A DNA stretch of 64,000 bases from Flavobacteriales bacterium (GCA_016718655.1 JADKCV010000002.1:87803-151802), one strand, 5' to 3'. Shown: positions 13,202 through 16,543, counted from the first letter of the stretch. Notes: a model not told the origin generated them from the sequence alone. A program made the numbers and translations.

Positions 13202-13438
13202 ATGGCATACGATTTCATCGAACACGCAAAGCGAATAGAGCACAAACTCAGACAACAGGGTTTTTCCAATTTGGCCAATAGGATTGAAGATGCTCGTTTA
13301 GGATCTTCCACCAGCGGGGAGTTATTGATGCGTCTGCGCTATGAAGCGAAAGAAATCAATGCTGGAGAAAGGCTCCCAATTGATATACGGGATGATCTTG
13401 AGGAACTCATCTCGGCAATTGATGATACCGGTATTTGA
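13202..13438 (+). CDS. hypothetical small protein (78 aa), low-GC cassette
   Basis: ORF in an AT-richer region. Acidic, helical-looking. No family recognised. Confidence 0.3.
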   Translation: MAYDFIEHAKRIEHKLRQQGFSNLANRIEDARLGSSTSGELLMRLRYEAKEINAGERLPIDIRDDLEELISAIDDTGI

Positions 13439-13807
13439 AGAGATCGTATGGTCAGGTCGTGTTGCACGCTATACTCCACAAGGCTTGTCATTTACAACGA
13501 CTAGCACCTTCTCAAGTACGCCAGCGGCTTACAGCCGACTTGGCTTGGGTTTCATGCGAGGGGCTCAGGTGAACACAATGCCTGCATCATACACACAGCA
13601 CCAGCTCACGTTAAGGGGCTTCTATCTCACAGGTAAAGTGGGCAGGCAGGGCCTTACGCTTGGTGGGGCGCAACAGTCCGTAGGATTTAGGGGATTGACA
13701 TTCTTCGGCCGATCACGGAGTGTGGTGGGCAGCACGCCCCAATGTCTAGCATGCACGGAGCACTACAACAGGTTCATCTCGATGATGGCCGGTCATTAGG
13801 TAATCCC

Positions 13808-14329
13808 ATGAGAACCGTTGGTTACAGAGGTGCGCGGGATTCATACGCGATGAACAGCGCGGGACAATTCGGCATCCCCTCCAATATGGAAGCACTCCGC
13901 GTGGAATGGCGCATCCCACCAGAGGTCACTATGGGAAAGATCGAGCGGGTGCGCCTCTACCTGAAAGGAGGAAGGTGTGTGGAGAACGTCTTCCTGATCG
14001 ATCGACGCTTCGCGCTCTACTATTTGGCGGACGAACTGGTCGCCGTGGCTAACCCAATGGACTTGACCTATGCCACCCCGACCAAGAATATCCAGAACAA
14101 ACTGGGGTTCACTTCTGAAGAGGTTCTCATCGTCCAGTCGAACAACAAGGTGGAACTGTTCTGGAAAGATGTCTTCGCAGACTTCCCGATTGGCTGGCTG
14201 TTCGGATCGTTCTTCAGACTAGCCGACGGCCCGCGAGCGCTGAAGTTCAATGAGGAACTCCGAGAGGAAAGTTGGAGCGTCCTACCTCCCGATGACGATA
14301 CAATTCTTGGCGGCTATCAGAGGGGATAG
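13808..14329 (+). CDS. hypothetical protein (~174 aa from internal ATG of ORF 13742..14329), low-GC cassette
   Basis: Longest ORF in this segment. Immediately followed by a REP hairpin at 14331. No motif recognised. The overlapping +ORF 13341..13799 in another frame makes the true coding frame for 13440-13800 uncertain. Confidence 0.3.
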   Translation: MRTVGYRGARDSYAMNSAGQFGIPSNMEALRVEWRIPPEVTMGKIERVRLYLKGGRCVENVFLIDRRFALYYLADELVAVANPMDLTYATPTKNIQNKLGFTSEEVLIVQSNNKVELFWKDVFADFPIGWLFGSFFRLADGPRALKFNEELREESWSVLPPDDDTILGGYQRG

Positions 14330-14330
14330 T

Positions 14331-14354
14331 GGTAATGTTCCAATCCATCACCTA
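14331..14354. repeat. REP-like hairpin (GTAATGTTCCAATCCATCACCTAG)
   Basis: Same unit as 10989. Directly 3' of the cassette ORF. Confidence 0.65.
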
Positions 14355-14461
14355 GCTCCACTGCCGCTCCACAACAGCCTGTTTATCAGGCGCCAGGGTA
14401 GTGCGTACCGTTCTGCATTGCGCGATGACCAGGTGGGTTGAGAGGGCCGTTCCTCGTCCTA

Positions 14462-14512
14462 CGCCGTTTTCCGGAGGTCATTGCGAGCTTCGTGTTCCAA
14501 TGCAACACCTCT
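14462..14512. repeat. composite REP-related repeat (CGCCGTTTTCCGGAGGTCATTGCGAGCTTCGTGTTCCAATGCAACACCTC)
   Basis: Homologous to 12263-12316 and 16683-16735. Stem GAGGTcaTTGC / GCAAcaCCTC. Confidence 0.6.
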
Positions 14513-14628
14513 TAACCTGCGCAGGGTGTCCTCCGCGATCGCCCCCCAAGGCAAGCCTCCGCCGGGTCTGTCCGCGCATTTGGCGGACGACCCTGCGGCC
14601 CAGAAGCCGCGACCGTTACCTTGTGGTG

Positions 14629-15168
14629 ATGTCCACCCGAAAGCTGCGCCAGAAAGATGGTGCCTTGTACTTCGCCACCTTCAGTTGCCACGAATGGGTG
14701 CCGCTGTTCTCCGAATTACAAAAGTGCGATCTCGTGTACAACTGGATGCGGATCGCGCATGGAAAGGGGTATCGTTTCTTCGGCTATGCCATCATGCCCA
14801 ACCACGCGCACTTCGTCATCCGCGTACCCGATGATGGGGCCATCAACACGATCCTGAGCAACGGCAAGCGGTTCATGGCCTACGAACTGATCGAACGGCT
14901 CAACATGGCAGGCAGATCAGACCTACTGCACCGCTTGCAAGCAGGTATCCGGCCATCAGACGCTGCACGTGGGCAGAAGCACCGCGTGTTCCAGCCCTCA
15001 ACGGATCTGGTGGAGCTCTTCAGTGGGACGATGATCGAGCAGAAATTACAATACATCCACGCCAACCCGGTGAGCAAGAAGTGGCGGCTGGCCGATGATG
15101 CGGTGGAGTACCCGCACTCCAGCTTCGCCTTCTATGTGCGTGGAGAGGATCGTGGAGCACCGCTATAA
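14629..15168 (+). CDS. divergent RAYT / IS200-like Y1 HUH transposase (third copy, ~179 aa)
   Basis: ATG at 14629 (MSTRKLRQKDGALYFATFSCHEW). HUH motif in HAHFVIRV. Catalytic Tyr context LQYIHANPVSKKW. About 30% identity to the two RAYT copies above. Confidence 0.7.
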   Translation: MSTRKLRQKDGALYFATFSCHEWVPLFSELQKCDLVYNWMRIAHGKGYRFFGYAIMPNHAHFVIRVPDDGAINTILSNGKRFMAYELIERLNMAGRSDLLHRLQAGIRPSDAARGQKHRVFQPSTDLVELFSGTMIEQKLQYIHANPVSKKWRLADDAVEYPHSSFAFYVRGEDRGAPL

Positions 15169-15355
15169 CCTTACCAGGAGTTCGGTTTCCTAGATGGCAA
15201 AGGAGCACCGTGGTGATAGGGCGGATGTGTAATTTGTGGGCGCAATGGGGATGACCTCGGATAGGGGTGGGTGTGCGCGGCTACGAGGCCGCAGGGGCCC
15301 CTCGTTCCTCGGGAGACCCTGCGGAGGTTTAAACTACATCCAACCGCCACTGGAG

Positions 15356-15952
15356 ATGAGATCATCAAATTCAAGAACACAATTGACGCGAAATATGCCG
15401 CACATTGGTTCAGGTAGTAAGACTCACAGCGTTGGGGCGATCCTCAGTTCCATTGACGCAGCCATTGGAGTGCTCCGAACTCTTGATTTTCCTTATCCGA
15501 TCAGCGACAACGCTGTGAATTTTTGCAGCAGATCACTAACAGAAAAGGACTTTTCCCCCTTCTTCCCAGAAGCAGAGGTGATCGCATTTTACAGCATATG
15601 CGACGGAATAAATTTACCTGACGTCCACAATGGCTATTTCATTCATCCATTGAAGAAGTTCACAATGGCCCAATCTCATTTGATCGCCCTGAACGAGGAT
15701 AACACGAAAATCAGCGAATTCTTCGTAGTTGGCTCAACCGGTGGTGGAAATTTGATTGCGATCGAACAGACCACGAATTCGACCTATTTACTACCAAACA
15801 ATCGAATTGAGAATGGTCTTTATTTTTCTTCGACAGCATCACCTATTCGTATTATCTCGCGCAATTATGCAGGATTTCTAAATCTCCTTCATGCGGATAT
15901 TGTGGCATTCTGCGAAGAAAAAGCCGGACATCGTTTCATAGATTCTCGATAG
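15356..15952 (+). CDS. SUKH-1 (Smi1/Knr4-family) immunity-type protein
   Basis: ATG at 15356 at the start of a clearly AT-richer block. C-terminal FFVVGSTGGGNLIAIEQTTNSTYLL resembles the SMI1_KNR4 signature (hydrophobic-G-x-GGG-hydrophobic-x-hydrophobic-D/E). Size ~200 aa. Sits in an orphan-cassette array downstream of a polymorphic toxin. Confidence 0.5.
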   Translation: MRSSNSRTQLTRNMPHIGSGSKTHSVGAILSSIDAAIGVLRTLDFPYPISDNAVNFCSRSLTEKDFSPFFPEAEVIAFYSICDGINLPDVHNGYFIHPLKKFTMAQSHLIALNEDNTKISEFFVVGSTGGGNLIAIEQTTNSTYLLPNNRIENGLYFSSTASPIRIISRNYAGFLNLLHADIVAFCEEKAGHRFIDSR

Positions 15953-16114
15953 AGTCGTTGCCCCACCTATCGCCTGGGCCTACTTCTTCCGTGCGGCCCA
16001 TCGAGTACCAAACCACGCGTAGCGGTGGGACCTTGTAGTCGGTAACAGGGTCTTCATGTCTGAAGACCCGAAGTACCTGATTTCCATCGAAAAAAAACAT
16101 CCGCTAACACGCAA

Positions 16115-16543
16115 ATGTTGCCCGAAAAGATCGCCTTGGAGGTCGAACACCTCAGGAAAAAAGCCGTGGAAGCAAGTAAAGAGGGGAATATGCAACTGGC
16201 CATTGACACGTTGAACGAAGCCTGGCTTCTTCTCCCAGAGCCTAGGACCGATCAAGCGGAGTCGTTCACCATCACGCAGTACCTGGTCTCACTCTTTCTG
16301 AAACACAAGGATCTTGAACAAGCTTATGTGATGGCCGATCGCCTTCAGAATTGCGACCTACAACGCCAGGATATCGGCGAGCGGGAGTTCCACTTGGGAA
16401 GGGTCTTATTTGAGCGGGACGATAAGGCTGAGGCTTTCCGGATCTTCCTCATCGCTGACCAGAAATCGGAAGGCCGGATCTGGCGCCTCTCGACAGCTCA
16501 GCTGTACAGGGAGTTCTTCCAATCTATGCGAAAAGGTCAATAG
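16115..16543 (+). CDS. hypothetical all-alpha (TPR-like) protein, candidate orphan immunity protein
   Basis: 142 aa, low GC. Followed 4 nt later by a REP hairpin (16547). Confidence 0.3.
   Translation: MLPEKIALEVEHLRKKAVEASKEGNMQLAIDTLNEAWLLLPEPRTDQAESFTITQYLVSLFLKHKDLEQAYVMADRLQNCDLQRQDIGEREFHLGRVLFERDDKAEAFRIFLIADQKSEGRIWRLSTAQLYREFFQSMRKGQ

Follow-up and report, generated by a model that had tools for sequence, protein, structure and literature searches.

A candidate orphan toxin-immunity array with a shared 3' repeat behind a Tc toxin gene in Flavobacteriales

The Tc toxin gene and the genes behind it

The sequence studied here, referred to as the window, is a 64,000-nucleotide stretch of one strand from a Flavobacteriales bacterium (GCA_016718655.1 JADKCV010000002.1:87803-151802). 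It encodes a TcA-like protein and a TcB-TcC toxin fusion, followed by an array of small genes that extends to rplQ (L17) and contains copies of a conserved 24-nt motif, D2. An initial annotation, made from the sequence alone, had proposed that the open reading frames (ORFs) at 13202, 13808, 15356 and 16115 are orphan immunity genes, one of them a SUKH-1 (Smi1/Knr4) homolog, and that together with an ORF at 10519 they form an immunity repertoire attached to the toxin. We found that all four ORFs are present on the + strand. They belong to a series of six co-oriented small ORFs, called here ORF155 (at 10519), ORF75, ORF78 (at 13202), ORF173 (at 13808), the SUKH ORF (at 15356) and ORF142 (at 16115). 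All substantial ORFs between the toxin stop codon and rplQ are on the + strand (Table 1), and we found no evidence that the ORFs are frameshift artefacts of longer genes. The locus recurs in GCA_017997635.1 and in many metagenome contigs, and its source is a lineage of metagenome-assembled genomes (MAGs). Related loci are designated below by L numbers and homologous proteins by P numbers.

The GC content of the six small ORFs is 0.44 to 0.55, compared with about 0.60 otherwise. The values for the four proposed orphan genes are 0.443 (ORF78), 0.546 (ORF173), 0.439 (SUKH ORF) and 0.522 (ORF142), against 0.631 in the TcB-TcC core and 0.596 over the remainder of the window. These genes had been described as lying in AT-richer blocks separated by GC-rich sequence with repetitive extragenic palindromes (REPs) and REP-associated tyrosine transposase (RAYT) genes. 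That description holds, with two qualifications. The shift is strong for two of the four ORFs only, and three RAYT genes do lie between the blocks, but the RAYT units have a GC content of 0.54 to 0.57, so they are GC-rich only in relative terms.

All small ORFs of the array, the tips, and the partner ORFs of related loci were compared with Pfam, NCBIfam, PADLOC and PHROGs. The family matches were to RAYTs and the Rhs core only, apart from a weak NCBIfam match of ORF142 to the type III secretion system chaperone SctY (E 0.018). In these databases we found no match to a non-immunity family that would speak against the proposal.

The TcB-TcC fusion (3003-10505, 2500 aa) contains SpvB and TcdB_toxin_midN/midC domains (Pfam) and an Rhs-associated core (TIGR03696 Rhs_assc_core, E 1e-18). 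The conserved part ends at residue 2199 with a P-x4-D-x2-G autoprotease motif (...PIGDLDIDGMQ, read from the sequence), a signature described for TcC proteins (PMC7861908). The toxin of L074 is 80% identical to that of the window over residues 1-2199, and a partial ortholog in L035 is 73% identical, with the match ending at the same residue (DIDGMQ). Past residue 2199, the C-terminal tips of the window, L074 and L035 proteins are mutually unrelated, as are the small ORFs behind them, ORF155 in the window, ORF161 in L074 and ORF174 in L035. The tip and the downstream ORF are exchanged together among orthologous toxins.

ORF155 begins 13 nt past the toxin stop codon. Its homolog in L028, from a different Flavobacteriales MAG, is 78% identical, with a ratio of nonsynonymous to synonymous substitution rates (dN/dS) of 0.25. 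Only the last four toxin codons are present upstream of this homolog, and there is no Tc toxin in the 8 kb read of the L028 locus. Because the homolog is kept without a toxin, it shows the pattern expected of an immunity gene and not of a tip-specific chaperone. The proposal that the ORF at 10519 is a candidate cognate immunity gene is supported by its exchange with the tip, by the toxin-less homolog and by the low dN/dS.

The surroundings of the L028 homolog are unusual in themselves. At L028:950-1856, the ORF155 homolog and D2 lie on the minus strand within an 819-bp interval. The interval is bounded by an 88-nt direct repeat (82% identical) that corresponds to the 3' end of a LuxC-like acyl-CoA reductase gene. 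The arrangement looks like a discrete cassette of about 0.7 kb, ORF155 plus D2, that was inserted in a housekeeping gene with duplication of the gene end.

The resident tip had no Pfam match, and a search of PDB sequences gave chance-level matches only. Its C-terminus is hydrophobic and glycine-rich. The last ~90 residues (10230-10505; …VAPVIGGVATLY…GLFAVGVAVPVFGLALGAADVIGEYFFG…) are hydrophobic, with much glycine and alanine, and resemble glycine-zipper, membrane-inserting toxins. ORF155, the presumed partner of the tip, has no obvious transmembrane segment.

Table 1. Features of the Tc locus and the array, in window coordinates
Feature	Position	Strand	Basis or remark
TcA-like subunit, 5' end cut by window start	50..2647	+	Pfam PF18276 TcA_TcB_BD, E 9.7e-51
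128-aa ORF between TcA-like and TcB-TcC genes	2616-3002		no Pfam match
TcB-TcC fusion, conserved part (SpvB, TcdB mid domains, Rhs cocoon)	3003..9599	+	Pfam; TIGR03696
Resident TcC variable C-terminal toxin tip, ~300 aa	9600..10505	+	unrelated to L074 and L035 tips
ORF155, candidate cognate immunity protein of resident tip	10519..10986	+	swapped with tip in orthologs
D2 copy 1: 24-nt invariant motif plus ~80 nt, broken by left REP of RAYT1	10992..11095	+	
RAYT1 unit: REP hairpin, RAYT gene (11199-11780), inverted REP hairpin	11096..11823	+	NF047646, E 6e-28
ORF75 cassette, 75 aa	11825..12052	+	ORF call; GC 0.456
Full D2-D3 element (12133-12313), then 45-nt partial D2 (12348-12392)	12133..12392	+	
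RAYT2 unit (RAYT gene 12489-13070)	12393..13107	+	1290-bp direct duplication with RAYT1 unit, 97%
ORF78, 78 aa, ending at junction with toxin-tip fragment	13202..13438	+	ORF call
Orphan toxin-tip fragment, frame of ORF 13341-13799, without Rhs core	13431..13799	+	tblastn
ORF173, 173 aa, candidate cognate immunity protein of orphan tip	13808..14329	+	position, homology, dN/dS
D2-D3 element, starting 1 nt past ORF173 stop	14331..14511	+	repeat comparison
RAYT3 unit (divergent RAYT gene 14629-15168), own 21-nt inverted repeats	14591..15296	+	NF047646, E 1.6e-16
Divergent SUKH (SMI1/KNR4-like) protein, 185 aa	15395..15952	+	homologs, AlphaFold, Foldseek
ORF142 cassette (ORF 16115-16543, predicted TPR-like helical)	15992..16550	+	exactly at 5' edge of D2 motif
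D2-D3 element, last copy, closing array ahead of rplQ	16551..16731	+	repeat comparison
rplQ (L17)	16828-17316	-	follows last D2-D3 element

A displaced tip fragment, a SUKH-like protein and other cassettes

The array contains an orphan tip fragment that the initial annotation had missed. An ORF173 homolog in L088 is preceded by a gene for a protein longer than 266 aa, and the C-terminal 122 aa of this protein match the translation of 13431-13796 with 73% identity (tblastn, E 3e-46). A match to L085 covers 90 aa with 70% identity (tblastn). The homology begins right behind the ORF78 stop codon, and the fragment has lost its upstream part. ORF173, for which the longest version of the ORF starts at 13742, has homologs with 60 to 83% identity, the nearest diverged ones coming from short metagenome contigs. 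In both the window and L085, 8 nt separate the tip stop codon from ORF173 or its homolog. In L088 the homolog follows the tip directly, and another Rhs-repeat fragment comes after the pair. The pairing of tip and partner is also found in L085 to L087 (tip 70%, partner 60% identical). The dN/dS values are 0.08 to 0.11 for the tip segment and 0.13 for ORF173. Given the tip homology and the partner conserved directly behind the tip in three other loci, 13431-14329 comprises an orphaned piece of a toxin tip and its partner gene, an arrangement that is a classic sign of toxin-immunity modules that have been displaced. ORF173 is therefore the partner of this fragment and not a free-standing immunity gene. 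Comparison of ORF173 and the L088 tip with PDB sequences gave chance-level matches only, and a word-index homolog search with ORF173 recovered close relatives only. As a further SUKH protein, ORF173 was rejected (hhalign against the SUKH alignment, probability <1%).

The SUKH ORF spans 15356-15952 (198 aa), with the probable true start at 15395 (185 aa). The protein itself had no Pfam match at E ≤ 1 and no NCBIfam match. An ortholog that is 90% identical, P0002, scored 17.7 bits (E 0.0055) against PF09346, below the gathering score of 25.4 bits. A word-index search with the SUKH ORF recovered two near-identical proteins only. An exhaustive phmmer search of 1.84 billion representatives gave 253 homologs at E ≤ 1e-3, typically of about 175 aa. 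Among 80 aligned homologs, 36 match PF09346 SMI1_KNR4 (best E 4.4e-13), four match SUKH_6 and one matches SUKH-4. The initial annotation had reported a G-x-GGG-hydrophobic-D/E signature in this protein, which is present as G-x-x-GGG-x-hydrophobic-...-E and reads GSTGGGNLIAIE. The four glycines of its GSTGGG stretch (G126, G129, G130 and G131) are each either invariant in the 80-sequence family alignment or conserved in 90% or more of the sequences.

An AlphaFold model of the SUKH ORF built on the family alignment had a mean predicted local distance difference test score (pLDDT) of 92.2. Each of the seven best Foldseek matches in the PDB was to the core of yeast Knr4 (6qbn and related entries, E 2.6e-4) or to BF1740, an SMI1/KNR4 protein of Bacteroides fragilis (3d5p), with probability 1.0 and template modelling (TM) scores of 0.42 to 0.60. 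The next matches had E > 0.3. Searches of PDB sequences with the protein and with its profile (phmmer/profile) gave chance-level matches only. The dN/dS of the SUKH ORF against L011 was 0.21. On the basis of the remote homologs, the conserved glycines and the predicted fold, we assign the protein to a divergent subfamily of the SUKH superfamily. The identification as SUKH-1-like is thus indirectly supported by the homologs and the model, with direct membership of PF09346 falling below threshold. An immunity role for this protein is putative.

Of the remaining cassette genes, ORF75 and ORF78 had no family match in the four databases. Homologs of ORF75 are confined to contigs of the same species, and ORF78 has no homolog beyond its own species. 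With neither an outside homolog nor a family match nor a closing repeat, a role for ORF78 is unsupported. A single-sequence AlphaFold model of ORF142 had a pLDDT of 82 and seven helices, and matched three-repeat tetratricopeptide repeat (TPR) domains in Foldseek. The predicted TPR-like fold would be a generic protein-binding fold, compatible with immunity but not diagnostic of it. A word-index homolog search with ORF142 recovered close relatives only. ORF142 was likewise rejected as a further SUKH protein (hhalign against the SUKH alignment, probability <1%).

The D2 repeat and the RAYT units

Five copies of the D2 24-mer (GGTCATGTTCCAATCCATCACCTC) are present in the 6-kb array and none elsewhere in the window (0 expected). 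Three of the copies extend to an element of about 190 nt, D2-D3, that ends in a second, related motif. D2 follows four of the six cassette genes of the window (ORF155, ORF75, ORF173 and ORF142). ORF78 has no D2, and the SUKH gene is followed by D2 in L011 and not in the window, where the ORF142 cassette intervenes. The two loci diverge exactly at ...CTTCTTCCG|, after which L011 continues with D2 and the window continues with the whole ORF142 cassette and then D2. Across loci, the small ORFs that precede D2 number twelve, are not related to one another and always lie on the D2 strand. For seven of the twelve, the gap from stop codon to D2 is 0 to 21 nt. Where adjoining genes share 67% DNA identity, D2 is identical at 28 of 28 positions.

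Scans of genome and metagenome collections showed that true D2 copies are confined to Flavobacteriales MAGs and related metagenome contigs. A scan of the genome collection with a degenerate 19-mer, for which we estimate about 35 loci by chance, returned 61 loci, of which three were real (L028, L035 and L065). The other 58 were judged unrelated by inspection, as all loci but three had at least four mismatches to the full 24-mer. No D2 match was found in viral contigs. Most D2 loci outside the species of the window also carry TcC/Rhs core fragments, and L078 and L081 carry several.

In these two loci (L078:10-5736 and the whole of L081), small ORFs and D2 are preceded by several separate TcC/Rhs fragments. 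One is a 59-aa piece that matches the extreme N-terminal end of the window toxin with 92% identity, and others come from the core end, each followed by a different tip. Both loci belong to the same system and are larger orphan arrays.

Tandem partial D2 copies of 34 to 58 nt are present in four loci and look like recombination scars. A second lineage (L073, L078, L079, L080, L084, L085 and L086) has a much longer conserved repeat around D2. Between its copies, conservation reaches about 200 nt ahead of D2 and about 50 nt past D3, even where the cassettes they follow differ. The invariant motif contains ATCACCTC (window 11007-11015, and every other copy), which is identical to a portion of the 3' end of bacterial 16S rRNA, the anti-Shine-Dalgarno region. 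This may be a coincidence.

The three RAYT genes match REP_Tyr_transpos of NCBIfam (Table 1). Inverted REP hairpins of 30 to 37 nt that contain GTAG flank both RAYT1 and RAYT2, the 37-nt pair of RAYT1 being 95% complementary. The four copies of this hairpin in the 64 kb all flank RAYT1 and RAYT2. RAYT3 has an ortholog in L011 that is 70% identical. In L011, L074 and the window, RAYT units are embedded in D2. Every RAYT1-type unit has its left REP joined to D2 after 18 to 104 nt, in constant orientation.

A 1290-bp unit comprising the RAYT gene, ORF75, D2-D3 and the partial D2 is duplicated in the window (11103-13107), L007, L075, L077 and L083. The 35-kb contig L001 (7038-8564) has a single RAYT, no ORF75 and one 1290-bp unit fewer, owing to either a population polymorphism, through recombination between RAYT copies, or an assembly collapse. 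RAYTs are usually single-copy and vertically inherited. The RAYT proteins of L074 (12092-12673) and of RAYT1 are 98% identical, and the unit DNA about 95% identical, compared with 80% for the TcB-TcC proteins. This difference in sequence identity suggests that the RAYT unit recently moved horizontally, or was gene-converted, between the L074 and window lineages. Such mobility is unusual for a RAYT.

Interpretation of the array

We consider it probable that a polymorphic Tc toxin has its orphan toxin-immunity array in the region from 10.5 to 16.7 kb, and that D2 serves there as a shared 3' anchor, with the RAYT and insertion sequence (IS) elements as secondary additions. This reading builds on the anatomy of the locus, the homologies, the joint replacement of tips and ORFs, the purifying selection, the conservation of D2 and the precise junctions. 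From these we infer protection against toxins and recombination at D2. In such an array, the TcB-TcC protein would carry an exchangeable C-terminal tip, with ORF155 as its own small protective gene. The cassettes (ORF75, ORF78, the tip fragment with ORF173, the SUKH gene and the gene for the TPR-like protein) would have been acquired from elsewhere. D2 would be the common 3' anchor of module exchange, and the 5' crossover would occur in Rhs-core DNA or in another D2. The stored genes would neutralise tips delivered by related strains, as in orphan Rhs and contact-dependent inhibition (CDI) modules and in polyimmunity and acquired interbacterial defense (AID) loci. The RAYT/REP units and IS1 elements would have inserted into D2 secondarily. 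The immunity repertoire originally proposed is therefore kept in modified form. The exchange of tips and ORFs, the orphan homolog of the gene at 10519 and the SUKH-like protein speak for it, but the ORF at 13202 is not supported and the ORF at 13808 belongs to a tip.

Several points weigh against this interpretation. Five of the six small array proteins have no match to a known immunity family. The toxin and immunity activities of the array products are putative, being read from sequence. ORF75, ORF78 and ORF142 have no diverged homologs, so their coding status is judged from ORF length and position and, for ORF142, from the confident predicted fold. No toxin tip adjoins the SUKH gene in the window or in L011. 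Two distant SUKH relatives, P0003 and P0004, are solitary, with housekeeping genes around them (a third, P0006, is on a 985-nt contig that is too short for context). Because the SUKH ORF falls below the Pfam threshold and the closest distant relatives looked up are solitary, the statement that the family is almost exclusively one of immunity proteins is not demonstrated for this subfamily. The role of D2 is suggested by its position and conservation, with no recombinase assigned to it. Lastly, a genome-wide survey regarded Tc toxins as acting on eukaryotic cells, and none of the Tc loci that it covered had a predicted immunity protein (PMC7861908).

These points lead to the possibility that the small ORFs are not immunity genes at all. 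They could be Tc accessory factors such as tip-specific chaperones or assembly factors, unrelated hitch-hikers, or partly non-coding debris at a hot spot of recombination beside rplQ. The Tc tip is thought to be kept unfolded in its cocoon and Tc toxins to act on eukaryotes, and no immunity proteins are reported (PMC7861908). TPR folds are typical of chaperones and adaptors, and the weak match of ORF142 to SctY (E 0.018) points in the same direction, as do the lack of homologs of ORF75 and ORF78 outside the species and the solitary state of the closest distant SUKH relatives looked up. We nevertheless regard this explanation as improbable. A chaperone is not expected in the absence of its toxin, yet the L028 homolog of ORF155 is under purifying selection with no Tc toxin in the 8 kb read, and a tip fragment that cannot be delivered is retained along with its partner ORF173. 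In addition, the tip and the downstream ORF are replaced together, and SUKH is a recognised immunity superfamily, the commonest one, and is listed also for TcdB/TcaC-type polymorphic toxins (PMC3482391).

The other explanations concern D2. One is integron-like capture, in which D2 is a site-specific recombination site and cassettes of "ORF plus D2" are moved singly by a dedicated enzyme and not by homologous recombination. The enzyme could be an array-embedded RAYT (HUH/Y1) transposase or an unlinked recombinase. Such capture would fit a 24-mer that is invariant across lineages whose genes are 60 to 80% identical, the strict orientation of D2 with the cassette ORFs, the cassette junction exactly at the first D2 base, the tandem partial D2 copies and the ~0.7-kb ORF155+D2 unit with its 88-nt direct repeat at the 3' end of the L028 housekeeping gene. 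It would also fit the RAYT units inside D2 in three loci and the RAYT of L074, 98% identical to RAYT1 where the toxins are 80% identical, and the rAID-1 arrays of Bacteroidales offer a precedent (bioRxiv 10.1101/471110). We think it rather unlikely, as no tyrosine or serine recombinase is encoded in or beside the array and several D2 loci have no RAYT (L028 and L035, and the L078/L085 lineage within its short contigs). Moreover, the REP ends meet D2 at points that vary (18-104 nt) and share no target sequence, and D2-D3 is a direct-repeat element that, as single-stranded DNA, folds no better than shuffled sequences (z +0.68 and +1.95), unlike the hairpin substrates attC and REP. A more specific version, in which D2 is the attachment site of an undescribed Flavobacteriales gene-capture system that shuttles single immunity or tip cassettes into and out of Tc loci by means of single-strand HUH (RAYT-type) enzymes or an unlinked recombinase in place of an integron integrase, seems quite unlikely to us. 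If it were true, cassettes would occasionally enter housekeeping genes, as in L028, and Tc tips would be dangerous to bacteria, so that Tc injection machines may take part in interbacterial conflict. Alternatively, D2 may act in RNA or transcription as a shared module of the 3' untranslated region (a terminator, a processing or stability element, or a protein-binding site) that travels with the cassettes. D2 is strand-specific, starts 0-9 nt past the stop codon in many cassettes, and has a central hairpin with GC-to-AU exchanges between two lineages. But there was no relevant Rfam match, the RNAalifold covariation term was unfavourable (+0.5) with few compensatory pairs, and the invariant 24-mer is predicted to be mostly unpaired. 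A structured RNA is unlikely, and the lack of an Rfam match and of covariation, with the shuffle-level folding, indicates that D2 is not an attC-like or REP-like hairpin. An intrinsic terminator was rejected, since terminator-like sites are not enriched at D2. A role in RNA would also leave the tandem partial copies and the insertions at or inside D2 unexplained, and we give it little credence.

The orphan toxin-immunity array that we favour resembles several known systems. Like orphan Rhs/CDI modules and TcdB/TcaC-type polymorphic toxins (PMC3482391), the window has an Rhs-type body with an exchangeable tip, a tip-linked small gene downstream, a displaced tip fragment with its partner and a stored SUKH gene. 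In contrast to these systems, toxin sequence is kept in a single stored module, which lacks an Rhs-core remnant that could serve 5' recombination. The modules have D2 as a common conserved 3' repeat, and the carrier is a complete Tc locus with TcA. TcdB/TcaC has been listed as an export route, and heterogeneous polyimmunity loci have been described (Zhang et al. 2012, PMC3482391). Such loci and rAID-1 arrays (Ross et al. 2019, bioRxiv 10.1101/471110) have in common with the window co-oriented small genes with GC content below that of the genome, mixed or unrelated families that include SUKH, repetitive intergenic sequences and the phylum Bacteroidota. Unlike rAID-1, the array has no defining XerD-like tyrosine recombinase at its head, and it is attached directly to a toxin gene. 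There is no recombinase ORF between the toxin and rplQ, and none was found among the proteins scanned of L074, L078 and L011. The array is also short, with six small ORFs, its repeat is specific to these Flavobacteriales, and RAYT (HUH) units lie inside the repeats.

Integron arrays likewise have co-oriented cassettes whose ORFs are closed by a conserved site, and one insertion in the window is exactly at the edge of that site. The window differs from integrons in having no IntI integrase or attI, and D2 is not an imperfect hairpin. As in REP/RAYT systems, RAYT genes are flanked by inverted REP hairpins, but three RAYT genes are packed into 4 kb of the window, including a pair with 97% identity, REPs in the 64 kb are confined to RAYT flanks, and a lineage whose toxin is only 80% identical has a near-identical RAYT. 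In these respects the window RAYT resembles an insertion sequence targeted to D2 and not a domesticated single gene with dispersed REPs. With the Tc (ABC) toxins of Photorhabdus, Yersinia and other bacteria, the locus shares a TcA with a TcB-binding domain, the SpvB and mid domains, and the TcC Rhs cocoon with its autoprotease motif and hypervariable C-terminus (Song et al. 2021, PMC7861908). Departures from these complexes are the fusion of TcB and TcC into a single protein of 2500 aa and the Bacteroidota host. Immunity-like genes and an orphan array also lie behind the tip of the window toxin, whereas no Tc locus in the survey had a predicted immunity protein, so the window locus differs from those described (PMC7861908).

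At this locus a complete Tc system (TcA plus fused TcB-TcC) shows every hallmark of an interbacterial polymorphic toxin, namely swapped tips, tip-linked downstream genes, an orphan tip-partner pair and a SUKH protein. Tc toxins have been studied as insecticidal, anti-eukaryotic injection machines. The locus raises the testable question whether some Tc tips are toxic to bacteria and need to be neutralised. The 24-nt boundary motif provides a sequence handle with which cassettes in uncultured Flavobacteriales could be catalogued, and a way to ask how immunity arrays assemble without an integrase.

The region past the last D2 varies as well. In relatives of the window, an IS1-like transposase, intact or fragmentary, lies directly past the last D2 (L011:10860-12316, L065:5776-7539 and L035:3901-4641), and in L011 and L065 a Fic-domain gene is present between this transposase and rplQ. 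The region upstream of rplQ is therefore a variable island in several lineages.

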